From IMG/VR virus record IMGVR_UViG_2778261298_000002, positions 1 through 41,462 of that record: a stretch of 41,462 nucleotides of DNA. One strand, written 5' to 3'. Every line of letters begins with the position of its first letter. Position 1 is the first letter of the stretch. Positions 659-41,462 of the stretch are shown one piece after another. The stretch is from a virus. Its lineage: Duplodnaviria; Heunggongvirae; Uroviricota; Caudoviricetes. The translations under genes and the position numbers were made by a program. The notes under the pieces are model-generated. The model did no database searches and was not told where the DNA came from. It was given only the letters and a program-made list of their open reading frames with translations.

Positions 659-1354
659 ATGAAAAAGGAAATACTCAAGGCTCTTTGCCCTACATGCGGT
701 GGGTTACGTAACTGCACTGTGCATGGGAAGCTAACCACTAGCTGGGAGGATTCCCAATATCCAGTTTATGGGTACCATTACCATCACCTACTCCAATGCA
801 ATGGCTGTGATACTGTCTTCTATCACCACAACGAACACTTCAGTGAGCATACTACCCACGAATATCGTGATGGTGAATTTGTAGAAACGCCTATAGATAT
901 GATCACTACCTATCCTGCCGCTGAAACATTTCAAGCTCCGATATGGTTATCCAAGCTTGAATCAGTTGATCGTCAGCTCTTTCAAATATTTAATGAAATG
1001 TATTCTTCATATACTTCTGACCATTTCATTCTTTCGTCCATCGGTTTACGGACGATTTTTGATCGAACTGCTGAACTGTTACAAATTCACCCCGGTTTGC
1101 CGCTTGGTGAAAAAGTTGAAAAATTAAAACAAGATGGAGTCATAGGCGACACTGAGGCATGCGTTATATCTTCAGTAATTGATGCAGGAAACGCCGCCGC
1201 ACATCGCAGTTGGAGCCCGAATAAAAGTGAGTTCGAACAAATGCTAGAAGCTATAGAAAGTTTTGTCCAAAGAACTATCTTGGGCAAAAAATCACTTGAA
1301 CATATAACCAAACAACTCCCACCTCGGGTTACAAGACCTAAAAATAGTGCATAA
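659..1354 (+). CDS. Hypothetical protein, N-terminal CxxC...CxxC zinc ribbon plus C-terminal helical domain (possibly DUF4145-like)
   Basis: 231-aa ORF; N-terminus has CPTCGG...CNGCDTVFYHH; C-terminus has GNAAAH motif; own sigma70-like promoter (TTGATT-16-TAATAG at 598-625); occupies the slot where e14 carries mcrA, next to the invertase. Confidence 0.6.
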   Translation: MKKEILKALCPTCGGLRNCTVHGKLTTSWEDSQYPVYGYHYHHLLQCNGCDTVFYHHNEHFSEHTTHEYRDGEFVETPIDMITTYPAAETFQAPIWLSKLESVDRQLFQIFNEMYSSYTSDHFILSSIGLRTIFDRTAELLQIHPGLPLGEKVEKLKQDGVIGDTEACVISSVIDAGNAAAHRSWSPNKSEFEQMLEAIESFVQRTILGKKSLEHITKQLPPRVTRPKNSA

Positions 1355-1380
1355 TCCGCGATCATCAATGTGGCGTAAGG

Positions 1381-1937
1381 CTATGGTTTACTTGCTACAG
1401 GGAATTTTTTATACACCGTTGAAATACCCAGATCATAAATCAGTGCGACTTGCTGCTGATATATTCCCGATTCAATCAACCTGCCAGCCTGCCCCCATTG
1501 TTCTACTGTCAGCTTTGGCTTTCGCCCACCGTTCCTCCCTTCTTGTCGTGCTGCGGCAAAGCCGCCCTAGTACGTTCGACAATAAACTCTCGCTCCATTT
1601 CAGCCAGGGCACCCATCACATGAAAGAAAAAGCGCCCCATTGGTGTGCTGGTATCAATAGCATCCGTCAGGCTGCGAAAATTAACGCCACGTTCGCGCAA
1701 CTCTTCCACCAGCACGACAAGATGCCGCATACTGCGCCCCAGTCGGTCCAGTTTCCAGACCACCAGCGTGTCACCTGCCGATAATGTCCTGAGCAGCTTT
1801 TTCAGTCCTGGTCTGTCGGACTTTGTACCGCTTATCTTGTCTTCAAAAATCAGCTCACATCCTGCACAGTTCAACGCATTACGTTGTAGATCGGTGTTCT
1901 GGTCATTTGTTGATACGCGAACATAGCCAATAAGCAT
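1381..1937 (-). pseudogene. pin: Serine-recombinase DNA invertase (Pin/Gin/Hin family), frameshifted
   Basis: N-terminal 140 aa MLIGYVRVSTNDQNTDLQRNAL...GRFFFHVMGALAEMEREFIVERT is a resolvase catalytic domain; the C-terminal HTH (..EQWGQAGRLIESGI.QQQVALIYDLGISTVYKKFP) is in a different frame downstream of the stop at 1509; span is 557 nt, not a multiple of 3. Confidence 0.75.
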
Positions 1938-1991
1938 GATTGCTCCTCCTGACAAAAACAGGAACGATGCCATTTGCGCGCTATTTCTGCA

Positions 1992-2017
1992 TTTTCATAA
2001 ACGTTGGTTTGGGAGAA
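1992..2017. other. Invertase crossover site (gix/hix/pix-like), left
   Basis: 26-bp ttttcataaacgttggtttgggagaa; its reverse complement TTCTCCCAAACCAACGTTTATGAAAA matches the site at 3899-3924 and the hix/gix consensus (TTCT..AAACC.A.GGTTT..GA.AA). Confidence 0.75.
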
Positions 2018-2377
2018 GCGGCAAAACGGGATGTGGGGACAGGGGAAAATCAGATACCGGACATGGCCTCTTTTGCCAGTGGTGATGGATGGATGAAATT
2101 ACCCAACGGGAAAATCCTGCAATATGGTCGTGGTGCGGTTACGCCGACATTATCGACGCAAACAATGAGAATTACATTCAGCATCCCTTTCCCCAAAAAA
2201 GCGGACTGCGCCATGCTTACTCATTCTGGTGATGGCGGTGCGCCTTTAGGCGCTGGGCGAGGGTTCGTGATGACTGCAGAAGGCCCAACGTTAACCGGCT
2301 TTAATTCTGCTTACAGAACGTCATCAACCAGCGACACGGTATCGATGAATTACAGTTGGTGGGCTGTTGGTGAGTAA
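2018..2377 (+). other. Silent alternative tail-fibre C-terminal cassette (expressed only after inversion)
   Basis: Open frame continuing from the crossover site (..AAKRDVGTGENQIPDMASFASGDGWMKLPNGKILQYG..) with no independent start; followed directly by a tfa-like gene. Confidence 0.6.
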
Positions 2378-2388
2378 TTTTATTCAGG

Positions 2389-2841
2389 GTGATTTATATG
2401 AACGAATATGTTTATAGCGCAAGGCATAATGCTTTTTTCCCTGTGGATATGATTGATAAATATAAATCAGAGGGATGGGATTTATCAGACGCTAAGGAAG
2501 TAAATCAAAATATTATCAGTGAGTTTATGGCTGAACCGCCACAAGGAAAAATCCGTATTGCCGGAGATGATGGGCTGCCTGCGTGGGCAGATATTCCTCC
2601 ACCCACGCATGAAGAGCTTATTGAAATTACTGAATCAGAAAGACAGCTACTAATTAACCAGGCCAACGAATACATGAACAGTAAGCAATGGCCCGGTAAA
2701 GCCGCTATTGGTCGTCTGAAAGGTGAGGAACTGGCGCAATATAATTTGTGGCTGGATTATCTGGATGCACTGGAGCTGGTTGATACCTCCAGTGCGCCAG
2801 ATATTGAATGGCCTACGCCTCCGGCAGTTCAGGCCAGATGA
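2389..2841 (+). CDS. Tail fibre assembly protein (Tfa), alternative-orientation copy
   Basis: 150 aa; C-terminal motif ..LWLDYLDALELVDTSSAPDIEWPTPP typical of Tfa chaperones. Confidence 0.75.
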   Translation: MIYMNEYVYSARHNAFFPVDMIDKYKSEGWDLSDAKEVNQNIISEFMAEPPQGKIRIAGDDGLPAWADIPPPTHEELIEITESERQLLINQANEYMNSKQWPGKAAIGRLKGEELAQYNLWLDYLDALELVDTSSAPDIEWPTPPAVQAR

Positions 2842-3415
2842 CATCCGGCGCGGTGCTGGTATCTGTTGCCGTCACCGCGTCAATGTAATCCAGCACAGCG
2901 TTAAGTCTGGTTGTTTCTGCCTGCGTCAGTTTACGTCCGGCCTGCAATTTCAGTTGAATCAGACTAATGGAAGCCATTGCAGCATCAATCAGTGACTGGC
3001 GCTGTGCTTCTGCCGCGTCTACTGCGGCGCTATGCTGTGCCTCAGTATCGGTCACCCATTTCTCACCATCCCATTTATCGTATGGCGTTAATGGGGCGAT
3101 AGTGGTTGTATTTTCAGGGTAATCACCCGGAGCGGTGATTTCTTTTGATTCTCCTGTTTTGGTGCTATAGACCGTTTCACCGCGATGGTCTGGCACATAT
3201 TCCCATGAATTTAAATCTACAGAGCGACAGATTGCATAACCAGCTTTATGTGTACCTGGTGCATCCAGACAGGAACATGCCGGGATACCGACTCCGACAG
3301 CGAGATATTCAGTTGATGTAGAAATATATTCCCGCGTTTCGCCATCATAGTTATGTACGATGATTTCCCCATCATTTAAAGCGTAACCGTCTTTTCCCAA
3401 AATAGCCTGTTCCAT
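2813..3415 (-). CDS. Tail fibre assembly protein (Tfa), currently expressed orientation
   Basis: 200 aa; C-terminus ..LNAVLDYIDAVTATDTSTAPDVIWPELP; immediately downstream of the fibre gene. Confidence 0.75.
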   Translation of the reverse strand: MEQAILGKDGYALNDGEIIVHNYDGETREYISTSTEYLAVGVGIPACSCLDAPGTHKAGYAICRSVDLNSWEYVPDHRGETVYSTKTGESKEITAPGDYPENTTTIAPLTPYDKWDGEKWVTDTEAQHSAAVDAAEAQRQSLIDAAMASISLIQLKLQAGRKLTQAETTRLNAVLDYIDAVTATDTSTAPDVIWPELPEA

Positions 3416-21254: not shown

Positions 21255-21605
21255 TCACTTTAGCCGTTCACGGGCCGTCTTCGTCTTATGGCACGGCCAG
21301 CACAGGCTCTGCAGATTACTGTCTGCATCGGTGCCGCCATGCGCTTTAGGGATGATGTGGTCAACGGTTTTCGCTTCACGCGCCACACCAGCACGCAGAC
21401 ATAACTGACACAGGCCTTTGTCACGTTGCAGCACACGCACACGGATAACATCCCACTTAGAACCATAACCGCGCTGATGACGGGATTGTCCTGACTTGTA
21501 TTGCTTCCAGCCTTCGCTTTTGTGGCTTTCGCAGTAGCCTGACGGGTCTGTCGTGGTATTACGGCAGCCGCGAACGCGGCAGGCTTTTGGAGTTCGAGGG
21601 GGCAT
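21255..21605 (-). CDS. HNH endonuclease (terminase-associated)
   Basis: 116 aa with Cys-rich HNH motifs (CxxC...HxxP...H...CWPCH); immediately upstream of the terminase small subunit. Confidence 0.8.
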   Translation of the reverse strand: MPPRTPKACRVRGCRNTTTDPSGYCESHKSEGWKQYKSGQSRHQRGYGSKWDVIRVRVLQRDKGLCQLCLRAGVAREAKTVDHIIPKAHGGTDADSNLQSLCWPCHKTKTARERLK

Positions 21606-22181: not shown

Positions 22182-22641
22182 TTACTACCCCACCAGCTTT
22201 TTTAAATCGGGCAATCAGGTCACCGATTTTATGTTCATACTGACCGTAACCTGCACCAGGTAACGACGCCCAGATATTGCTGCAACGGTCGATTGCCTGA
22301 CGAATACTGCCGCGGTCAATCATCGGTAAAGCACCACGCTCTTTAATCTGCTGCAGAGCTACAGCGTCCTGGCTTTCTGGAGAAAAATCTTTCAGGCCAA
22401 GCTGTTTACGGTAAGCATCCCACCAGCGTGAAAGAAGCTGGTAACGTCCGGCAGCTGTTGATTTGAGTTTGGGGTTTAGCGTGACAAGTTTGCGAGGGTG
22501 ATCGGAGTAATCAGTGAACAGTTCGCCACCAACAATAACATCATAACCGTGGTTACGTGTCGGTTGTCGCCCGTTATCCGTTCCTTCTGACCATGCCACC
22601 ATATCCAGGAAAGCTTTACGCTGGGAATTTAGTGCCTGCAT
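22165..22641 (-). CDS. Endolysin, lambda R-like lytic transglycosylase
   Basis: 158 aa, near-identical over most of its length to my recollection of lambda R (..QRKAFLDM.AWSEGTDNGRQ.TRNHGYDVIVGGELFTDYSDHPRKLVTLNPKLKST.AGRYQLLSRWWDAYRKQLGLKDFSP..). Confidence 0.9.
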   Translation of the reverse strand: MQALNSQRKAFLDMVAWSEGTDNGRQPTRNHGYDVIVGGELFTDYSDHPRKLVTLNPKLKSTAAGRYQLLSRWWDAYRKQLGLKDFSPESQDAVALQQIKERGALPMIDRGSIRQAIDRCSNIWASLPGAGYGQYEHKIGDLIARFKKAGGVVNEAEI

Positions 22642-22644
22642 AAA

Positions 22645-22980
22645 TTACTCCTTCGAGCTACCAAATTTGTTACCGATTACTCGCATTGCAGCCCCACGAA
22701 TAGCATCGACACCGATCAGCCCCACGCCACCACCAATGGCAACAGAAAGCGATTTAGGCCATCCGACATATTCAAGAGCGGATGCAAAGGTCAGCGTCAG
22801 AGCGCCACATAGCAAAATCTCGAGCGTTTTTCGCTTCCAGCCACCACCACCGCCAAAATAGGCGATGCGCAAACCAGCCATAACGATCGACATAATCACT
22901 GCACCCAGCGGTGTGTCTCCACGCCACCAGCTCTGAAACAACTCCAGCCAGTCCGGCCAGGTATTTGGGTTATGAGGCAT
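22645..22980 (-). CDS. Holin, lambda S-like (start taken at internal Met; the ORF extends to 23076)
   Basis: TM-rich; motifs MAGLRIAYFGGG and IGVDAIRGAAMRVIGNKFG parallel lambda S; upstream of the endolysin. Confidence 0.7.
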   Translation of the reverse strand: MPHNPNTWPDWLELFQSWWRGDTPLGAVIMSIVMAGLRIAYFGGGGGWKRKTLEILLCGALTLTFASALEYVGWPKSLSVAIGGGVGLIGVDAIRGAAMRVIGNKFGSSKE

Positions 22981-23056
22981 TTCGTCATCTCTCACCTCGC
23001 GATATTTGCGGGTGCTGTGTTGGAAATAAAAAGGCCACGCAACGTGGCCACCAGAA

Positions 23057-24109
23057 TTATTTCCCCACCAGTTCACTTACCTCTTTCACCGTCTGATTAA
23101 ACCGCTCTGACTCAAGTTCAACACCTAACGCCCGACGCCCCAGCGCCATTGCTGCTTTTATTGTGGAACCGGATCCCATAAAGAAATCAGCAACCAGATC
23201 ACCAGGTCGACTACTGGCATTGATTATTTGCCGGAGCATATCCGCCGGTTTCTCGCACGGATGTTTACCCGGATAGAACTGAACGGGCTTATGCGTCCAG
23301 ACATCGGTATAAGGCACGGAAACTGATACGGAGAAATAGCGCCGGAGAGATTTAAACTCATCCAGCAATTCAGAATATTTGCGATTCAGTGAATCATAAG
23401 ATGCCACCAGCTGGTGGTGTGGTTGTTCCAGTTGTTGTTCCTGAAACTTCTCTGCCGCTATACGGGAAAACAGTGCCTGTAACTTCCGATAGTCAGCCTC
23501 ATTCGGCAACTGCCACTGACTGGCACCAAACCAGTGGGAAACCATATTTTTCTTACCTGTGGCTTCGGCAATTTGTTTTGCCGTTATACCCAGTTCGGCA
23601 CGAGCATCCCTGAAATACGATATCAGCGGTGCCATTATGTGCTGTTTGAGTTCCCTTTCTTTTGCCGCATAGCCGTCACTTTTGCCGCGATATGGCCCCT
23701 GGTAATGTTCAGCAAACAGAACGCGCTCTGTGGCAGGAAAATATGCGCGCAGACTTTCTTTATTACACCCATTCCAACGTCCGGACGGCTTCGCCCAGAT
23801 GATATGGTTAAGCACGTTGAAACGTTCACGCATCATGATCTCAATATCAGATGCCAGGCGATGCCCACAGAACAGGTAAAGGCTTCCGGCAGGTTTCAAC
23901 ACCCGCCAGAACTGGGCCAGACAGTGGTCCAGCCACTTAAGGTAATCTTCGTCCCCTTTCCACTGATTGTCCCAACCGTTAGGTTTCACCTTGAAGTAAG
24001 GCGGATCGGTAACAATCAGGTCAATGGAATCATCAGGCAGGGACTGAATAAAATGCAGGCAATCAGCGTTGATTAAATCAACACTGTTTATTTTTACAGT
24101 ATTTTTCAT
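23057..24109 (-). CDS. Orphan DNA methyltransferase (amino-MTase with DPPY motif)
   Basis: 350 aa; N-terminal IVTDPPY catalytic motif and C-terminal FxGSGST AdoMet motif; no adjacent restriction gene. Confidence 0.8.
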   Translation of the reverse strand: MKNTVKINSVDLINADCLHFIQSLPDDSIDLIVTDPPYFKVKPNGWDNQWKGDEDYLKWLDHCLAQFWRVLKPAGSLYLFCGHRLASDIEIMMRERFNVLNHIIWAKPSGRWNGCNKESLRAYFPATERVLFAEHYQGPYRGKSDGYAAKERELKQHIMAPLISYFRDARAELGITAKQIAEATGKKNMVSHWFGASQWQLPNEADYRKLQALFSRIAAEKFQEQQLEQPHHQLVASYDSLNRKYSELLDEFKSLRRYFSVSVSVPYTDVWTHKPVQFYPGKHPCEKPADMLRQIINASSRPGDLVADFFMGSGSTIKAAMALGRRALGVELESERFNQTVKEVSELVGK

Positions 24110-24259
24110 GGATCAGTAAGCGTAACTCTGGTAGGCTCACTCTGCTTTTGCGCTAAAGCAGTGGGCCGTGGTTCGCTTGTGACCAGTAAGCATGAGCGAA
24201 TGGCTGGCAGGTGCTACCAACACCCACCAGCCGCCCATTTTCACAGCAGGAAACCGCCA

Positions 24260-24487
24260 TTACTGGCAGCGTCTGAATTTATTCCCGTACCCGCCGTTAT
24301 CCTTCGCCAGACCCGCCAGAACTAACTGAGTCAGTATTAACTGGCACCGGGCTTCGCTTACTCCGGTAGTTCTCGTCATCATGCGTGGCGTTACCCACTT
24401 GTCAGCAGGTAAGAAATGAAGGACTGCGGCGGCGGTTTCTGTCATATCTTGCTGTTTTAGCATGTCTTTTTCCCTTCTGGTTAACAT
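24260..24487 (-). CDS. Hypothetical small protein (75 aa), possible winged-helix
   Basis: ORF between the late terminator and the methyltransferase; no family recognised. Confidence 0.35.
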   Translation of the reverse strand: MLTRREKDMLKQQDMTETAAAVLHFLPADKWVTPRMMTRTTGVSEARCQLILTQLVLAGLAKDNGGYGNKFRRCQ

Positions 24488-24584
24488 GACATACCAATAA
24501 CTCTTGTCTAAAAATCCAGCAAGATAAAAAGTCAGTATTCACGACCACCAGCGTGTTTACTGTACTGCACCAAGTTTACAGGTA

Positions 24585-24608
24585 CAAAAAACCCGCTCAG
24601 TGGCGGGT
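24585..24608 (-). terminator. Rho-independent terminator (tR'-like) downstream of the late promoter
   Basis: Minus-strand hairpin acccgc/gcgggt followed by a U6 run. Confidence 0.6.
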
Positions 24609-24655
24609 TCCTAAATCTTATCAACGGTAGACATACAAAGCCCATCGTTGGGAAA

Positions 24656-24684
24656 ATCTTATCCATATTTTTTGAAAAATGCAA
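24656..24684 (-). promoter_or_regulatory. Late promoter (PR'-like) immediately downstream of Q
   Basis: Minus strand TTGCAT-17 bp-TAAGAT; about 30 bp after the Q stop and about 50 nt upstream of the terminator. Confidence 0.55.
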
Positions 24685-24715
24685 GCTTCATGTCGCCATC
24701 TTCGGCGAAAATCAC

Positions 24716-25474
24716 TTATCTCGTCACCTTTCTCAATTGCGTTTCAGCATATGCTTCTTCCTGCCAGCACTTTGTAACCAGTTTATCAATGACATCTGCA
24801 TATCCTTTGTACCACTGATAATCCGTCAGGTCTGGTACCAGCTTCTGGACATGATGCCGCGCCAGTGTGGTTGGTAAACGGCTAAACCGGTTTCCATTGC
24901 AACGCCCACAAATCTTATAAACAGGCGTGCCATGAAGCCGGGTCCTTTTTTCATCCAGGACAATACCTTTACCCTTACACCCTCTGCACGCTGTGCTGAC
25001 TTCTCCCTTACCATGACAATGCTGACATAGTTCCTTCACCCACTCTTCCTTGATAACAGATTCCCCGCTTCTGGAGTGTTTTACCACTTCGCGCAATACA
25101 TTATGAAATCCAGTACCAGCACAATGCTCACAGCGAGCCTTACTTGCCGCAGACCTGGAATAATCAGCAAAGGCAAAATTCACAAGGTAAGGGATGATCT
25201 GTAACCGGGTTTCTTCACTCAATTTATTCAATGTCGGGTTATCCAGTGCCATCGCGTAATTGAGCAGACCTTCAATCGCAAACTGAGGATCCTGAACACC
25301 AACTTTTGCCAGGAATAAGGCAAAACCCAGTGGTGCTTTCGACTGCACCATCCCCTGCGCAGCCATCACATCCGTAATCGTTAAACCACCAGAGCCTGTC
25401 GCCGGTGCGTCATCGCTCAATTTTGGAGATTTTGGGGAGTAATATTTTGGTAAGGCTTCAAGGTTCATGCTCAT
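24716..25474 (-). CDS. Late-gene antiterminator Q (zinc-finger type)
   Basis: 252 aa with four CxxC pairs (CEHCAGTG, CQHCHGKG, CRGCKGKG, CGRCNGN); placed before late promoter and terminator. Confidence 0.7.
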   Translation of the reverse strand: MSMNLEALPKYYSPKSPKLSDDAPATGSGGLTITDVMAAQGMVQSKAPLGFALFLAKVGVQDPQFAIEGLLNYAMALDNPTLNKLSEETRLQIIPYLVNFAFADYSRSAASKARCEHCAGTGFHNVLREVVKHSRSGESVIKEEWVKELCQHCHGKGEVSTACRGCKGKGIVLDEKRTRLHGTPVYKICGRCNGNRFSRLPTTLARHHVQKLVPDLTDYQWYKGYADVIDKLVTKCWQEEAYAETQLRKVTR

Positions 25475-25481
25475 TCTCCAC

Positions 25482-26477
25482 TTACGCCAGTACGCCTATT
25501 GCCAGCGCACGATCGATAAAACGAAATATCAGCTCCAGCTGGGAGCCATACTTCTCTTCAAATGCCACGGTATCCGCATGCAGCTCGTCGTGATGCTTTC
25601 TGCACAAAGGCAACACAAAGAGGTCATGCGCTTTTGTACCCATTCCCCCCTGACCGTGGCCTATCAGGTGGTGGGGATCATCAGCGGGCTTTCCACAACA
25701 TGCACACGGCTGTGTCTTAACCCAGCGCGTGTACTTTTCATTAACCCAGCGGCGACGTTTTGGGCGTAACATAAAAGACTCCGGCGACTCCGGATCCACT
25801 TTCAGCGCCAGCACCTTTTTTGCCTTATCCTGGATGATGCTGGTGGCAGGAACCGAAGGCACAAGGTCACTTTCCCGGGTGACAGACGGCACAACAGGCT
25901 TTGGTAATCTCAGTGCCTTACGGGCTGCACTTTCCGGTAAGGCATCCGCCAGGTCATTACGAATCAGCCACCAGCACAGTTCCGGCATTGTCACAACGTG
26001 ACTATCATCAAAACCGAGATCCCGACGCACAACAGACAACACCCAGCGGGCACAGTTATCCGTTGCCATTGATTCCAGCCGTTCCGTGAACTGATCGCGC
26101 AGCTGGTTATCACAGTGCCAGCACAGACGGATTGCGCCCGGAGCGTGTCGCATTGTGGTCATGTTCTCGCTGTGCCAGTCGGAATGAGGCCACTGGCAGC
26201 CTTTTTCACGAAGTAACCAGCTTTCAAGACATTCCACGCCACCAGCACGACGGATCACTGCCTCATTGCGGAACACGGCCCGAACGTCAGGATCATCCGC
26301 CAGCGGTTGTGATGCCGCCGGAACAGCACCACTGGCGAAAGATGAATAACGTTCCGGCTCAGGCTCCAGCAGGACACGCCCCTGCATAAACAGGGGCATC
26401 AGCTCTGAACCTGGTCTGAACAATACGATCCCCATACGCGGGGCAATTTCAGGGGTCAGTAGTGCTCTCACGGTCAC
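25482..26477 (-). CDS. DUF968-family protein (YdfU-like) with C-terminal HNH-like zinc motif
   Basis: 331 aa; C-terminal CACCGK...HHLIGHG...CRKHHDELH; typical nin-region gene of lambdoid prophages. Confidence 0.55.
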   Translation of the reverse strand: MTVRALLTPEIAPRMGIVLFRPGSELMPLFMQGRVLLEPEPERYSSFASGAVPAASQPLADDPDVRAVFRNEAVIRRAGGVECLESWLLREKGCQWPHSDWHSENMTTMRHAPGAIRLCWHCDNQLRDQFTERLESMATDNCARWVLSVVRRDLGFDDSHVVTMPELCWWLIRNDLADALPESAARKALRLPKPVVPSVTRESDLVPSVPATSIIQDKAKKVLALKVDPESPESFMLRPKRRRWVNEKYTRWVKTQPCACCGKPADDPHHLIGHGQGGMGTKAHDLFVLPLCRKHHDELHADTVAFEEKYGSQLELIFRFIDRALAIGVLA

Positions 26478-26478
26478 C

Positions 26479-27276
26479 TCAATGAACGGTATCGAGCAGC
26501 TTTAACAGCTCAGGGAATCGGGATTCGAAGAAATGCGGCTGCGTCTCACGCGGATTTGCGGGACTGGTGATATTCTTGCCGAACATGCAGCCTTTCGCTG
26601 TCAGCGACCAGAATTTTTTGATGTTGTTAATCGCTGTACGGCTGTATCGTTCGCGCTGTTCGACGATCCCCAGCTTCGCCATCTGGTGATATGCCTGATT
26701 AGCCGTAAGGCGGATACCATACTGCTTCAGCAGTGCACTCAGTGACAGCGTGGGGCGGCTTGAGCCATCAGGCGCGTCAGCAGGAGCATCAATGGCATAG
26801 CGCGGTGCCAGATTCGGTAAGCCAACAGCCTCCTGAAGTTTCTGACAGGCTCCAAGCACTGAAGAGTTAGACAGATTTAACTCCCGGCGCATAAAGTCCA
26901 GCAGAATCACACCAGCCTGCATCTTGTCAGCAGCCTGTCCGGATAATTTTTCCGGTGCGCTGGTTACCATGTCGAAAGTACGGATCACCTTCAGATGGAA
27001 TGACGGGCTGATCCACATTGCATAGGCATACACCAGTTCTTTGCAGACATACGTCCCCTGGTTATTTCCGCCACGAATAACGTTAACTGGCTCTATATTG
27101 ACCGAGTTGCAAATCTGCAACTCGCTTATTAAACGCTCAGTTTGCTCATTGCGGAGCCAGAATGCAGGCTTATGCTTATCCAGAGAACCGGCAGCCCTGT
27201 GCAGATCGTTCAGGCTGTAACGCCCATAAGCATCACGACGAACTTCAATACCATCAATGACCATCAGATTATTCAT
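26479..27276 (-). CDS. KilA-N domain protein / antirepressor-like
   Basis: 265 aa; N-terminal IDGIEVRRDAYGRYSLNDLHRAAG is KilA-N-like. Confidence 0.6.
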   Translation of the reverse strand: MNNLMVIDGIEVRRDAYGRYSLNDLHRAAGSLDKHKPAFWLRNEQTERLISELQICNSVNIEPVNVIRGGNNQGTYVCKELVYAYAMWISPSFHLKVIRTFDMVTSAPEKLSGQAADKMQAGVILLDFMRRELNLSNSSVLGACQKLQEAVGLPNLAPRYAIDAPADAPDGSSRPTLSLSALLKQYGIRLTANQAYHQMAKLGIVEQRERYSRTAINNIKKFWSLTAKGCMFGKNITSPANPRETQPHFFESRFPELLKLLDTVH

Positions 27277-27295
27277 ACTTCGTTTCTCCTCTTAA

Positions 27296-27685
27296 TCAGG
27301 CGGCTGCACCCGCCGTTTTCTCGTACTTACTGATAGTGATCTCGACCTTCCCTTCCGGGATAACCGGTCCCCACTCCACCAGCATTCTTTTCACCTGACT
27401 GTCGTCTTCCCACACACCCGCGTGGGTCAGGGCGTCAAACAGCGCCTTGTTATAGTTGTCCAGATCGCGGATCCGGTTATCCGGAGGAAACAACACGATC
27501 TCCACTGAAGCAGGTGCCGACGTTGGTTTTGGCAGACGACGTAACTGCTCAACTATTGCTGCACACGCCGCGCTCTGGAATTTGCGCCCCGCCGCGCTTA
27601 TCAGGCTCTTACCTGCAAACGCCCCTTTGTTGGGGTGTCGCCAGTACGTGTTCACGCTGGGCGGGAAAGGCAGAATCAGCTTCAT
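27296..27685 (-). CDS. rusA: Holliday-junction resolvase RusA
   Basis: 129 aa; N-terminal LPFPPSVNTYWR and RDLDNYNKALFDALTHAGVWEDDSQV match the RusA family. Confidence 0.8.
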   Translation of the reverse strand: MKLILPFPPSVNTYWRHPNKGAFAGKSLISAAGRKFQSAACAAIVEQLRRLPKPTSAPASVEIVLFPPDNRIRDLDNYNKALFDALTHAGVWEDDSQVKRMLVEWGPVIPEGKVEITISKYEKTAGAAA

Positions 27686-28008
27686 ACTTTCAGACCCCTC
27701 TCATGTAACCAGTGGGCTGCACGCAGCCTGGCGTTTTCCTCACCGGCAAGCAGTGAGCGGATAATCCCGACCGCCTCGCTGTCGTCGTCCTTCACCGCGG
27801 TATGAAGCGTTATCCCCCGGGCCACACCACGCTTTATCGTGATGACGCCTTTTTTCTCCAGTGCGCGAAGATGCTCCACCGCTGCATTCACTGAACGATA
27901 TCCCAGCATGGTTGCCACCTCCTGATTGGTTGGCGGAAAGCCACGCTCTTTCTGGTAAGAAATCAGCATATCCAGCACCTGCTGCTGGCATTGAGTTAAC
28001 GTCGTCAT
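27682..28008 (-). CDS. LexA-like DNA-binding domain protein lacking the S24 peptidase domain
   Basis: 108 aa; LTQCQQQVLDMLISYQKERGFPPTNQEVATMLGYRSVNAAVEHLRALEKKGVI resembles the LexA N-terminal winged helix; no Ala-Gly/Ser-Lys autocleavage module. Confidence 0.6.
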   Translation of the reverse strand: MTTLTQCQQQVLDMLISYQKERGFPPTNQEVATMLGYRSVNAAVEHLRALEKKGVITIKRGVARGITLHTAVKDDDSEAVGIIRSLLAGEENARLRAAHWLHERGLKV

Positions 28009-28691
28009 GCCGCCATCTCCCTGACCAGTTTTTCCGCCTGCTGGCGAACCTGCGCCAGAAAGGCCTCACCACATGCCTCAAGTTCATCGCGCCCGATGTA
28101 GCTGATTGCCGGTCCCTTCCAGGTCTTGTCGAAAACAGCAATAGCACCAGCGAAGAAAGCGCCTGTCGGTACCTGCTTCTCGTCTTTCGGGATAAACCAG
28201 ACAGGCAGTTCAAAACCAATACGCCCGCGAATAAAAGCAATATGATCTGCATTTTCCGGCCACCACACTTCGCTGGTGGCAGCTTTGATCAGGAAAACAT
28301 AGCGCCCGCCTTTATCACGCATGGCACTGGCATGCTTCATGATGTAACGCATGCCGGTGATGTATTGCCCCTCATGCTGACTGGCGCGGCTGTATGGGGG
28401 ATTACCAAAGGCAGCACCTTTAAGCTCCGCAAGACGTTCTGACCAGTCATGCGCCAGCGCGTTGTCTTCCGCCGTGTAATACGCGGCACATTTGGCGTTA
28501 TCACCGTCAGTGAACAGATCCAGAACAAACGGGCCAAACAGGGTGTTAATTCCCCAGAAAATGTTGTCCGGCGTGCGCCACTGATCGCCCACTTCCTTCA
28601 GTTCATGGGCTGGTTTGTTCCGCAGTTCCACCAGCGCCTGGCAATATTTATTACTCATTAAGCCCCCACGTAATTCCCTGACAGATACCAC
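28005..28691 (-). CDS. Phage N6-adenine DNA methyltransferase (Dam-type, NPPY)
   Basis: 228 aa with FGNPPYSR catalytic motif. Confidence 0.75.
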   Translation of the reverse strand: MVSVRELRGGLMSNKYCQALVELRNKPAHELKEVGDQWRTPDNIFWGINTLFGPFVLDLFTDGDNAKCAAYYTAEDNALAHDWSERLAELKGAAFGNPPYSRASQHEGQYITGMRYIMKHASAMRDKGGRYVFLIKAATSEVWWPENADHIAFIRGRIGFELPVWFIPKDEKQVPTGAFFAGAIAVFDKTWKGPAISYIGRDELEACGEAFLAQVRQQAEKLVREMAA

Positions 28692-29152
28692 TCTTCACCC
28701 GATGCAGCGCGCTTGCTGCTTTTCCGTAAGCACCGCTCACGACGCGCCAGAAAATTGTTTCGCTCTTGCTGGGAGTGGCTTTCACGGAATGCCGCCATCC
28801 ACACCGTTGCAGCACGACGGTATAAGCCCCTGGACTCCAGTTCTTCCGCCTGGCGGGTCAGGCACAAAATCTCCCGCGGGTCGTTAGTGCCGACATAGAA
28901 ATTGCGCACAGGTCTGGTTTCACGAACTGGTTGCGGTTCCGCCTCCTGCGCTCTCTCAGTCAGGCGCGGGAAATGTCTGCGTGTATCCCCTTCACAACGG
29001 TGAGCCACACGACCACTCTGACGTAACTTGCTTGCTGACTGCAGAACGCGCTGCCGTGAGTAACCTGCAAAAGCATCCGCAATGTCTCCGGAAGTACACC
29101 CCGGATGGGCTTCAATGAATTTCTGAACTTCATTCAAAAGACTCATGATCAC
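28658..29152 (-). CDS. Hypothetical regulator (possibly ANR/PerC-like)
   Basis: 164 aa downstream of the replication gene; family assignment is a weak recollection. Confidence 0.35.
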   Translation of the reverse strand: MIMSLLNEVQKFIEAHPGCTSGDIADAFAGYSRQRVLQSASKLRQSGRVAHRCEGDTRRHFPRLTERAQEAEPQPVRETRPVRNFYVGTNDPREILCLTRQAEELESRGLYRRAATVWMAAFRESHSQQERNNFLARRERCLRKSSKRAASGEEWYLSGNYVGA

Positions 29153-30090
29153 CCCCTGAATCCTGCCGGGATCTGGCTGTAGTCCACGTTGTCGTAACTG
29201 GCTTTGAAGTACGGGTCTTCGCGTTTTTCGGTGTACGTGCTGACGGACGGCGATAAGCGCAGGGAAAGCTCATCCCATTTTTCCCGCAACTTCGACGGGC
29301 TGAGCACGTTACGGCACCAGAACGGATCGCGGCTGACGCGGCTGTACATCTCGCAGATTTGTTTGTGAGTACGACCATCCTGCACACACATCAGGCGAAT
29401 TTCGTTTGCCCAGGCTGTCCAGTTCGGTTCTTTGGGACGAACCACCTCGCCGTCACATTCGGCAGCCTGCTCGTACAGGGCGATGATTTTTTTCCAGAGC
29501 CACTGTGCGCAGGTCAAATCATCCTGCGTTCCCCACTGGCGCTTTTTAGGGCTGAATACAACCGCATCAGGATGGCGAGTTAAAAAATCCTGTTCATCCG
29601 TCTGCGTGTCCGGTTGCGAAGCGTCCGGACGAGAAGGTTTTTTATCTGACGGATCATGTTTTGATTTTACTGACGGATCCCCGCCAGATTCTGACGGGTG
29701 AAAACCCGCTTTTTTGCCAGATTTCGACGCATCAAATTTTGACGGGTCAGATTTTGATGCGTCAGATTTTGACGGGTCAGAATCTGACAGTTGAGAAAAT
29801 GCCGCTGCCTGAAGCTTCGCAACGTTAAGCTGATAAACATTCGACGCATTGCGGTTACCCTGGCGACGCGCCTTACGCGTTAACCAGCCTTCTGCTTCCA
29901 GCCGTGCGATAGCCGTTCTGACGGTACTCATCCCCGCGCCAATCTGGCGGGCAATGGTTTCAATTGATGGCCAGCACACACCTTCGTCATTACTGAAATC
30001 AGCCAGGCGGGCCATAATTGCCACGCTGGATAATTTCATGCCTGATGCAGCGCAACCATCCCATACATAGCCGGTTAATTTAGTGCTCAT
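29149..30090 (-). CDS. Replication initiation protein (O-like, N-terminal winged HTH) with internal iterons
   Basis: 313 aa; N-terminal wHTH (..WPSIETIARQIGAGMSTVRTAIARLEAEGWL..); central pentapeptide repeats (SKSDA/SKSDP/SKFDA) encoded by tandem DNA repeats. Confidence 0.6.
   Translation of the reverse strand: MSTKLTGYVWDGCAASGMKLSSVAIMARLADFSNDEGVCWPSIETIARQIGAGMSTVRTAIARLEAEGWLTRKARRQGNRNASNVYQLNVAKLQAAAFSQLSDSDPSKSDASKSDPSKFDASKSGKKAGFHPSESGGDPSVKSKHDPSDKKPSRPDASQPDTQTDEQDFLTRHPDAVVFSPKKRQWGTQDDLTCAQWLWKKIIALYEQAAECDGEVVRPKEPNWTAWANEIRLMCVQDGRTHKQICEMYSRVSRDPFWCRNVLSPSKLREKWDELSLRLSPSVSTYTEKREDPYFKASYDNVDYSQIPAGFRG
29650..29795. repeat. Iteron array (putative replication origin) inside the replication gene
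   Basis: At least 5 tandem 15-bp units (tcagattttgacggg / tcagattttgatgcg / tcaaattttgacggg) plus degenerate copies upstream. Confidence 0.55.
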
Positions 30091-39191: not shown

Positions 39192-39218
39192 GAAAAAACC
39201 CGCCTAAAGGCGGGTTTT
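39192..39218. terminator. Bidirectional rho-independent terminator
   Basis: aaaaaaCCCGCCtaaaGGCGGGtttt: 6-bp GC stem, 4-nt loop, A-run before and T-run after. Confidence 0.75.
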
Positions 39219-39237
39219 CAAAAAGCACCAGCTATGA

Positions 39238-39411
39238 TCATGCTGCTTTGCGACGACGAAGCTTACCCTGCTGCTCTTTACCAGAGACAGTAGCGTGAGT
39301 GAACGCATTAGGAGCAGCCTTCATCAGAACTTCAACAGCAGCACCCATACCTGCGAATGCTTTCATTGTGTCGAACTTAACCTGTGGCTTGGTTGCTTTT
39401 TGATCTTTCAT
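39238..39411 (-). CDS. Small hypothetical protein (57 aa, basic C-terminus)
   Basis: Hand translation MKDQKATKPQVKFDTMKAFAGMGAAVEVLMKAAPNAFTHATVSGKEQQGKLRRRKAA; RBS GGGAG 7 nt upstream; below the ORF-track cutoff. Confidence 0.45.
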   Translation of the reverse strand: MKDQKATKPQVKFDTMKAFAGMGAAVEVLMKAAPNAFTHATVSGKEQQGKLRRRKAA

Positions 39412-39607
39412 AGAAAACTCCCGAGACAGTAAAGGCGTCTCTAACCCTCTCTTTAAAGCTAGCTTGTTTCGCTAACTTATGCCAATCGATCATGTCGATT
39501 GGTGACATCGTTTCTTAGTAGTTTAAGCACAAAACGACTGCCATAGATGTACCTTTAAGGTAATCTGGACGGGTATCCTACAATTTGTAGCCCCTTCTCG
39601 TCTATAC

Positions 39608-40144
39608 CTACTGAGCAAATTTAAGAAAGATATCCTGCAGCTCATCAATGACTGCAGACATCACATAACCGCACTGTTCCATGCGGAAACCAAAAGACTC
39701 GTAATACTGCACCAGTTCTGGTACTGGCTCTACAATGTGGACAACTTTACATTCAACAGCTTTACAAAATATAAAAGCACTCATAAGAGTGAGTAAAACC
39801 ATGCGCCCTTTCAATGGGTGAGATTCATCTTCTCTAGAAAACCTTTCGATCATATGGATACGAAAGATGTTTTCTTCAACCCCATAAACACAAATTGCTG
39901 CTCCTGATGGTATTCCCTGAACCCGACCTTGCTGAACAAGTTTTATGCAGAACTCATACTTTTCTCTGGAGTTGCCATAGGTGCTTAACGCATAGTCCCA
40001 TTCAAGCTCACCATAGCCACCACACAGAATCTTGTAATCATCATCACTGAGCGGACCAACAGCAAGAGGTAAGCCGACATGATCAATAATCAACTGGATA
40101 TTGTTACGTACAGATTGACCTATCTCGTCTAGGGTAAGCATCAT
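39608..40144 (-). CDS. Hypothetical protein, possibly GNAT-like acetyltransferase
   Basis: 178 aa; AT-rich gene; weak resemblance to the GNAT acyl-CoA-binding core (..LKGRMVLLTLMSAF...YYESFGFRM). Confidence 0.35.
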   Translation of the reverse strand: MMLTLDEIGQSVRNNIQLIIDHVGLPLAVGPLSDDDYKILCGGYGELEWDYALSTYGNSREKYEFCIKLVQQGRVQGIPSGAAICVYGVEENIFRIHMIERFSREDESHPLKGRMVLLTLMSAFIFCKAVECKVVHIVEPVPELVQYYESFGFRMEQCGYVMSAVIDELQDIFLKFAQ

Positions 40145-40693
40145 AGACTCTCAAGCGGAACACTAAAAATCTCATTATATCTCATTCTGATGCCCCGCAT
40201 GGATTACACCTTGAAATGAAAACACCGGGTTCCCAATAGGCACCCACAAAGTGTATAACTACTTGTTTTTCAAAAACGGTACATCCTATCGAGCATTGGT
40301 GCAACGCTAAACCGACCACTCCAGTGAACGTCAGTTTTTTCAGGCATTGCGCTGGTTTGGTTGATTTTTTGCATTTCAGAATTACCGTGCATTTTCAAAT
40401 GTAGAGATTATTTTATCGATATATCATGGGGTTATGTTATTCAGCATCACTGTTCAGGAGGCTCAATAGCGGGGTACTATACCATAACAACAGGAAGCGC
40501 CTGTCTCATTGCAAAAGAAAATTGAGATCCTCTCAAGGCATGAAGCTCTCACGAAGTGATGGAAATAATCTTATTAGCCGTTAACTTTGTTAAGGCCAAT
40601 GATAAACAATCCAGGTTCGACGATAAATAAAAAATCACACATTAAACTCTGGTGATATATCTCCCTGCTAATAGCATTGATAGAGAAAAAAGA

Positions 40694-40717
40694 ACCCAAT
40701 AAATATTGGGTCCTTTT
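40694..40717 (-). terminator. Rho-independent terminator downstream of the 235-aa gene
   Basis: Hairpin acccaat/attgggt flanked by A- and T-runs. Confidence 0.55.
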
Positions 40718-40754
40718 ATATAATGCCTTCCATACTATCGAAGAACTTCACATA

Positions 40755-41462
40755 TTATTTCTCCGATTTAACCCCGAACAAATCATAAATTAATTTAGAA
40801 GTGTCTGTAAGTATTTTAATCTCTTCCTTTGAGGTTGGGTCAAACGACTTCGCGAAGCTAATTAATTGTGGTGCAGCATCTCGCATTTTGCTTAAAATAT
40901 CAGGATCGAGCGTTCCTTCATTCACCAGATGTGACATCTTATCCAGATAGCCATCAAAATTCATTTCTCCCCCATCAGCCAGACGCTTCATCTCTCCCAG
41001 GTACTTCTTCATATCACGTTGAGATAATTTTTCAAACTGAGCTTTCAGGTAGCTCTCATTATTTTCATTAATATACACTGTTTCTGATAAATCTGCGTAG
41101 GCACTAGAATATGAAAGTGAAATTAACAGCGAAGCAAATAATTTTAAGCTGTTGTCATCATGTTCCTGGCAGGCATTAACAAACGTTAAAAAACCAGAAC
41201 CTATTGCTTGAAAATGTATATTCGCTAAAGGTTCATTATCCTTAGATTCCTCATAAAATAGCTGAACCGTGGAGGGAAGGTCATTCTTAGTTTCTACATC
41301 AAAAGTACATTGTTCAATGGGCATTGCATCTTTATTATCCCCAAGATTACATATACTATTAATCGCGAAATGAAAAATAGCCCGGTCAACAACTGATGCA
41401 ATAAAGTCACGATCGTTTAAATCCTCATCAGTGCAATCGTCAATATACTTATTGACCCACAT
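40755..41462 (-). CDS. Hypothetical protein (235 aa in window; start codon sits at the window edge, may extend beyond)
   Basis: AT-rich ORF with no recognisable family. Confidence 0.4.
   Translation of the reverse strand: MWVNKYIDDCTDEDLNDRDFIASVVDRAIFHFAINSICNLGDNKDAMPIEQCTFDVETKNDLPSTVQLFYEESKDNEPLANIHFQAIGSGFLTFVNACQEHDDNSLKLFASLLISLSYSSAYADLSETVYINENNESYLKAQFEKLSQRDMKKYLGEMKRLADGGEMNFDGYLDKMSHLVNEGTLDPDILSKMRDAAPQLISFAKSFDPTSKEEIKILTDTSKLIYDLFGVKSEK

Follow-up and report, generated by a model that had tools for sequence, protein, structure and literature searches.

The 41,462-nucleotide (nt) stretch of viral DNA analysed here (positions 1 to 41,462 of IMG/VR record IMGVR_UViG_2778261298_000002; hereafter the window) is, by its sequence, an SfV-like lambdoid prophage of an E. 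coli/Shigella chromosome, integrated at dusA, and it carries two DNA methyltransferase genes. We put at about 0.82 the probability that these encode two unrelated, independently acquired orphan adenine methyltransferases of known kinds: a late, M.EcoGII-type enzyme that would be non-specific and act against restriction, and an early Dam-family enzyme that likely targets GATC. An initial annotation of the same DNA had recognized both genes and suggested that together they provide two-layer protection against restriction or epigenetic control. The two genes, with the start codon that we favour for the second, are as follows.

23057..24109, minus strand: late orphan N6-adenine DNA methyltransferase, 350 amino acids (aa), beta class, M.EcoGII type (PF01555, PADLOC; orthologue of SfV orf48)
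28005..28658, minus strand: phage Dam-family N6-adenine methyltransferase, 217 aa, predicted target GATC (PF05869, TIGR01712; orthologue of SfV dam)

The late enzyme resembles M.EcoGII

The 350-aa protein is present as initially annotated and matches the Pfam family N6_N4_Mtase over residues 29-341 (E=1.3e-42), the PADLOC model MTase_II PDLC03265 (E=1.6e-152) and DNA-methyltransferase families of PHROG. Its motifs follow the order of the beta class, with an N-terminal DPPY (residues 35-38), a central recognition domain and a C-terminal FxGxG (FMGSG, residues 310-314), and a structure search returned only distant beta-class methyltransferases, e.g. RsrI, MboIIA and CcrM. Much closer relatives exist at the sequence level. 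The protein is identical to the product of SfV orf48 at 347 of 350 positions (99%), and it aligns over its full length, recognition domain included, with M.EcoGII, to which approximately 283 of 349 residues are identical (81%, with 91% positives and 2 gaps), as are 60 of the 78 residues of the target-recognition region (residues 160-237). The two enzymes, of 350 and 349 aa, share the same beta-class layout and are both prophage-borne (PMC5778455); they differ at 19% of residues, 18 of these within the 78-residue recognition region, and the activity of the window allele is a prediction.

M.EcoGII is non-specific on DNA, methylating adenine in any context (PMC5778455; Murray et al.), and is fully active on DNA without a partner (PMC5778455). 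The window protein also shares ~89% identity with Anc291, a reconstructed ancestor, and 70% with SUPREM/Anc284; the ancestral proteins all methylated DNA as well as RNA, and an RNA sequence motif was absent for M.EcoGII, Anc291 and SUPREM alike. Homologues with ~93% amino-acid similarity, those from O111 strains among them, are given as non-specific in REBASE-based tables. Since the 350-aa protein falls within the range of these tested sequences, the most probable reading by a wide margin is a non-specific adenine methyltransferase. That it should instead be sequence-specific strikes us as very improbable, even if the residues by which it departs from M.EcoGII, in the recognition domain above all, could matter given that few substitutions can shift specificity. 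One orthologue does bear the RefSeq name 'site-specific DNA-methyltransferase'; this is a generic family label, and for the late enzyme it is probably wrong.

The Dam-type enzyme most likely methylates GATC

The second gene was initially described as a 228-aa, NPPY-containing Dam-type methyltransferase in the nin region; the gene, the motif and a nin-equivalent position all stand, and it is the length that needs revision. The longest open reading frame (ORF), 28005-28691 on the minus strand, does encode 228 aa from a GTG, but the ATG at 28658 is the likely start, giving 217 aa. This ATG overlaps the stop codon of the preceding PerC-like gene (TAATG) and follows a GGGGG run resembling a Shine-Dalgarno sequence; the gene measures 654 nt in SfV and in RefSeq annotation, and a PADLOC model covers residues 1-217 of the 217-aa protein.

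Family membership is clear from both PF05869 (E=7.8e-46, 156.3 bits against a cut-off of 28.1) and the NCBIfam equivalog TIGR01712, 'phage N-6-adenine-methyltransferase' (254.6 bits, cut-off 97.05). The NPPY motif occupies residues 86-89, and D-x-W-x-T-P, L-D and N-P-P-Y-S are invariant when the protein is aligned with the Dams of SfV, T1 and HP1. It is identical at 215 of 217 positions (99%) to the product of SfV dam, entered under that name in the SfV record as 'DNA adenine methylase'. Sequence relatives of the 217-aa protein were not found in the PDB. The 2002 SfV genome paper is said to have described multiple DNA methylases in SfV, with orf-41 reportedly confirmed by experiment as a Dam methylase.

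The Dams of T1, HP1 and VT2-Sakai/933W (M.EcoVT2Dam) share with the window enzyme the PF05869 family, the DxWxTP/LD/NPPYS signature, the orphan state and an early or nin-type position in a temperate phage; the VT2-Sakai gene that belongs to PF05869 lies at the matching nin position. M.EcoVT2Dam is assigned to GATC in REBASE-based tables, and the Dam-like enzymes of Gammaproteobacteria phages have been described as converging on this target. On these comparisons the 217-aa Dam is most likely GATC-specific.

The two genes are orphans and independent cassettes

The initial annotation was right that neither gene has a restriction partner: no restriction-enzyme family was matched in Pfam and PADLOC scans of ~30 window ORFs, 3 of which had no match of any kind. 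Nor does a cognate endonuclease, as expected of a type II restriction-modification system, stand beside either methyltransferase, the neighbours being Q, holin, PerC-like, LexA-N-like, RusA, KilA-N and DUF968/HNH genes. Within the reach of these scans both enzymes are orphans, neither having a restriction partner that could be recognised. A further HNH protein (21255-21605) adjoins the small terminase subunit.

Linkage was assessed in 80 viral contigs that encode a methyltransferase of 99-100% identity to the 350-aa protein and thus represent closely related phages; phiP27 and Stx2a, Hafnia and Vibrio phages were checked by hand beyond this sample. In 70 of the contigs the sequence continues for at least 5.6 kb upstream of the late methyltransferase; dam is present in 50 of these and missing from 20 (~29%), which retain the late gene. 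In five dam-less loci that we checked, homology breaks off where the PerC-like gene ends and picks up again where the LexA-N-like gene begins, the two joining directly with overlapping stop and start codons, which makes dam a presence/absence cassette with exact gene boundaries. The Q gene varies as well, the same type being found in only 28 of the 70 contigs, and SfIV has been reported to lack the methylase gene of the SfII/SfV replication module. The late methyltransferase and dam are independent cassettes in a mosaic genome, not a system.

These observations bear directly on the proposal that the two enzymes act in concert, either as coordinated layers of protection or in epigenetic control of the lysogen, which we regard as improbable. 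In its favour, both genes do occur in one prophage, and the arrangement recurs in many genomes and in the Hafnia phage yong2, which keeps both methyltransferases at the same positions. Against coordinated protection stands the clean loss of dam from loci that keep the late gene, and a non-specific adenine methylase would cover GATC by itself; the two-layer system initially proposed finds no specific support here.

Epigenetic control fares no better. The weak -35/-10 signals annotated for dam in the SfV record (TTGCGC-N15-TACGGA) could permit expression in a lysogen, but the -35 counterpart in the window is TGGCGC, a T-to-G change, and a promoter scan found no sigma-70-like site that would serve as an independent dam promoter. 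Host Dam already methylates GATC, to which a phage Dam would add nothing new in a dam+ host, and the late gene is preceded by a terminator. Its characterised relatives stay silent in lysogens and are deleterious upon expression: the prophage-borne M.EcoGII and M.EcoGI give no detectable methylation signal in the native lysogenic strain, and their over-expression slows growth (PMC5778455; PMC12707154). M.EcoGI likewise showed no kinetic signature in its native strain, and M.EcoMV, its homologue in ST131, is predicted from reverse-transcription PCR to be inactive. The test attached to the original proposal, by which failure of a new methylated motif to appear upon expression of either gene would count against it, is ill-posed and misleading, because a non-specific enzyme gives no motif and the host already methylates GATC; moreover, a lysogen methylome would miss the late methyltransferase.

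The late gene lies between Q and the lysis genes

The late region, read along the minus strand, contains Q, a hairpin with a T-tract, a 67-aa ORF, the 350-aa methyltransferase, a second hairpin with a T-tract, then holin, endolysin and spanins. Besides the methyltransferase, the features concerned are the following.

24716..25474, minus strand: Q-type late antiterminator, start of the late operon (PF03589 Antiterm, E=9.5e-54; phrog_127)
~24586..24612, minus strand: hairpin and T-tract between Q and the small ORF, at the position of a tR'-type late terminator (sequence reading; fold -13.5 kcal/mol, z=-2.1)
24260..24463, minus strand: 67-aa putative winged-helix ORF (75 aa in the longest ORF, to 24487), counterpart of SfV orf47 and phiP27 L23 (phrog_331, E=3e-26)
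23023..23049, minus strand: hairpin GGCCACG-TTG-CGTGGCC and T-tract between the methyltransferase stop and the holin (terminator scan; fold -12.5 kcal/mol, z=-2.7)
22645..22980, minus strand: holin, 111 aa from the ATG at 22980, first gene of the lysis cassette (PF05106, E=5.9e-27; S of SfV is 336 nt)

By this anatomy, after Q and a hairpin and before the holin, the initial placement of the gene in the late operon, between late promoter and lysis cassette, is correct. Both hairpins are annotated in the SfV record as putative terminators at the same places, the first of them as rho-independent. The longest ORF of the holin (22645-23076, minus strand; 143 aa from a GTG) would reach across the terminator hairpin and past the stop codon of the methyltransferase and was rejected as an over-extension, the ATG at 22980 giving 111 aa as in SfV S.

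The same slot, beyond Q and a terminator and ahead of the lysis genes, recurs in SfV, phiP27, Stx2a phages and Hafnia phage yong2, and in a Vibrio phage a methyltransferase of 56% identity also adjoins lysis genes. In phiP27 and Stx2a phages this slot is the position of stx. As a separate observation, an M.EcoGII-type methyltransferase gene survives in many Stx2a-converting phages only as its final 35 codons (68.6% identical; e.g. LC727867.1, 23571-23675), which suggests that the gene was truncated in this lineage.

Since the late methyltransferase is located behind Q and a terminator, it would be transcribed only by Q-modified polymerase, late after induction, and should be silent in the lysogen, as its relatives are.

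dam belongs to the early-right operon

From the O-like gene to Q, the minus-strand genes overlap or abut at their stops and starts, and dam lies among them, between the replication genes and Q, in a region that is equivalent to nin and in which none of the nin genes of lambda is present. Its neighbours, in order of transcription, are listed here.

29149-30090, minus strand: O-like replication gene
28658..29152, minus strand: PerC-like gene, the stop of which overlaps the dam start (PF06069)
27682..28008, minus strand: LexA N-terminal-domain-like protein, the ATG of which overlaps the dam stop (ATGA) (PF01726, E=2.9e-19)
27296-27685, minus strand: RusA
26479-27276, minus strand: KilA-N
25482-26477, minus strand: DUF968/HNH, the YdfU family protein, widespread in prophages

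These junctions indicate that dam is translationally coupled within the early-right operon. The LexA-N-like protein, coupled to both dam and RusA, deserves a remark of its own: at 108 aa it consists of the DNA-binding domain only, without the protease domain, and could compete for SOS boxes.

A Dam made from this operon might mainly serve the phage life cycle, in replication timing, avoidance of mismatch repair, packaging or promoter control, as an alternative to a part in protection. The gene sits in the replication/recombination module and is co-translated with early genes, and a non-specific late enzyme would make it redundant for protection. Regulation of the viral replication cycle is a possible function of many orphan phage methyltransferases, and P1, with its Dmt, needs Dam methylation of its pac sites (PMC12707154). 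Against such a role, the gene is dispensable in ~29% of close relatives, and the 134 GATC sites of the window, mildly depleted (observed/expected 0.68), are evenly spread with none in the immunity region, and no Dam-dependent site was identified among them. We consider this alternative possible but doubtful.

Palindrome statistics also revealed that the strongest avoidance (window positions 1-39300) concerns adenine-free sites, namely GCCGGC (0 against 16.6 expected), GGCGCC (1 against 13.7) and CGGCCG (0 against 3.6). Being adenine-free, these could not be protected by an adenine methylase, and their avoidance probably mirrors the host genome.

Neither enzyme belongs to the family of the PA8 RNA methyltransferase

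In a Stx phage, the MT-A70 enzyme M.EcoPA8orf6770P methylates 16S rRNA together with a winged-helix partner, PNB-2 (PMC10810198), and one of the window enzymes could by analogy act mainly on RNA and tune prophage induction. RNA is an in vitro substrate of M.EcoGII-type enzymes, the late methyltransferase has a tightly linked neighbour in a putative winged-helix ORF, and the PA8 case shows that 'Dam' annotations can mislead. Nevertheless, we judge such a role highly improbable. The PA8 enzyme is of another family, MT-A70, with a DPPW motif and a position near int, whereas the window proteins carry NPPY and DPPY and lack an MT-A70 match, and M.EcoGII needs no partner on DNA. For the Dam-like gene the Stx-phage rRNA methyltransferase was considered specifically and ruled out: the only Pfam matches of the two methyltransferases are PF05869 and PF01555, and the genes lie in the early-right and late regions.

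A model for the two methyltransferases

Gene identities and order, motifs, hairpins, prevalence and independent assortment are direct observations. In our interpretation of specificity, timing and benefit, the late enzyme would methylate adenines in essentially any context on progeny genomes before packaging, and the progeny DNA would then withstand many restriction systems of types I, II and III in the cell infected next, while late timing would confine a toxic activity to an already dying cell. Dam, by comparison, would be made from the early-right transcript while the phage replicates, and would either keep fast-replicating DNA fully GATC-methylated or supply Dam activity in dam-poor hosts. 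Host Dam leaves the virion DNA of lambda and P22 under-methylated, so a phage copy would complete or supply GATC methylation.

Anti-restriction is the accepted reading for enzymes of the M.EcoGII type (PMC5778455; EcoSal Plus review PMC12707154), and the same view is held for Mom of phage Mu; we find it plausible here. Mom and the alpha-class enzymes Hia5/M.HaeV offer a functional likeness in that they, too, are late, lysogen-silent and toxic broad modifiers of adenine through which progeny DNA escapes many restriction enzymes (PMC12707154). As proteins, however, they are unrelated to the late methyltransferase, and Hia5/M.HaeV have the reversed (alpha) motif order. The product of Mom is, moreover, reportedly acetamido-adenine and not N6-methyladenine, a finding ascribed to Drozdz and co-workers in 2012.

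Several points weigh against the interpretation that we favour. The specificities of both enzymes rest on homology. For the late one, the M.EcoGII reference sequence was machine-read from the supplement of PMC11551740 and contains small errors, which makes the identities quoted above approximate, and the late promoter was not located by a consensus scan. As to Dam, the T1, HP1 and VT2-Sakai enzymes are only 25-31% identical to it, and its subfamily departs from them in ~40 residues at the C-terminus and in 10 extra residues inserted after NPPYS; the assignment of GATC as target thus leans on the SfV gene of 99% identity. Finally, dam is often missing, and for protection it would be redundant should the late enzyme methylate every adenine.

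Relation to SfV and other prophages

The integration site follows from the right end of the window (39200-41462), where a PrtN-like (excisionase-like) gene and a 3'-5' exonuclease are followed by a fragment of dusA (tRNA-dihydrouridine synthase) and a DUF2713 host gene: the prophage runs into these and is therefore placed at dusA. Neither an integrase gene nor tRNA genes were found within the window.

Both methyltransferases fall within a 6.6-kb stretch (22600-29200) to which phages vB_EcoM-720R4 and SfV show 97-98% identity; mEp460, Ayreon and Stx2c-converting phages match it too. Coverage of the stretch reaches at least 80% in 23 phage records and in 603 of 5426 complete E. coli genomes, i.e. 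roughly one in nine. SfV (GenBank U82619.2) has the same two methyltransferase genes in the same order and positions and keeps both terminator hairpins; the window differs in the allele of its small ORF, which is ~51-54% identical to SfV orf47, in the changed -35 hexamer of dam and in its location at dusA. The gene pair was already known from the SfV GenBank record and is very common. The pair was reportedly described as well in the SfV genome paper by Allison and colleagues.

Elsewhere in the window, on the far side of the tail-fibre genes, positions 659-3415 hold a Pin/Gin-type serine invertase (1509-1973) and a DUF4145 gene (659-1354), together with tail-fibre C-terminus and assembly genes in opposite orientation. 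This looks like an invertible host-range segment with a cargo gene, and at least 80% of the 3-kb invertase segment is matched in only 10 complete E. coli genomes.

A small ORF linked to the late methyltransferase

As a discovery, the methyltransferase pair carries little weight, the family of the late enzyme having been biochemically characterized and being sold as a reagent. The one point that possibly merits follow-up is the small ORF upstream of it. Of 79 related viral contigs, 78 have the 67-aa ORF at a distance of 344-354 nt upstream of the late methyltransferase; 57 phage records contain it and ~56 contain a methyltransferase of at least 80% identity. In phiP27, an Stx2a phage and Hafnia phage yong2, where the Q genes are unrelated, the two again follow Q as a pair. 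The M.EcoGII paper (PMC5778455), in the portion of its text drawn on here, makes no mention of a linked upstream small ORF. The family has an invariant core, CQLILTQLVxAGLA, and four of five members gave sub-threshold matches to winged-helix families (TrmB/MarR/HTH_24), the phiP27 copy being a TrmB-family regulator in RefSeq. A single-sequence AlphaFold (AF2) model of the 67-aa protein was poor, with a model confidence (pLDDT) of 57, and too poor for structure searching.

On the basis of this linkage we speculate, quite tentatively and expecting that it will more probably prove otherwise, that the 67-aa protein is a functional partner of the methyltransferase, either a controller that times or limits a toxic enzyme or a subunit that steers it, e.g. 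to replicating phage DNA or to RNA. If this were true, the 'stand-alone' non-specific methylase that is in common use as a laboratory tool would natively be one half of a two-gene module.

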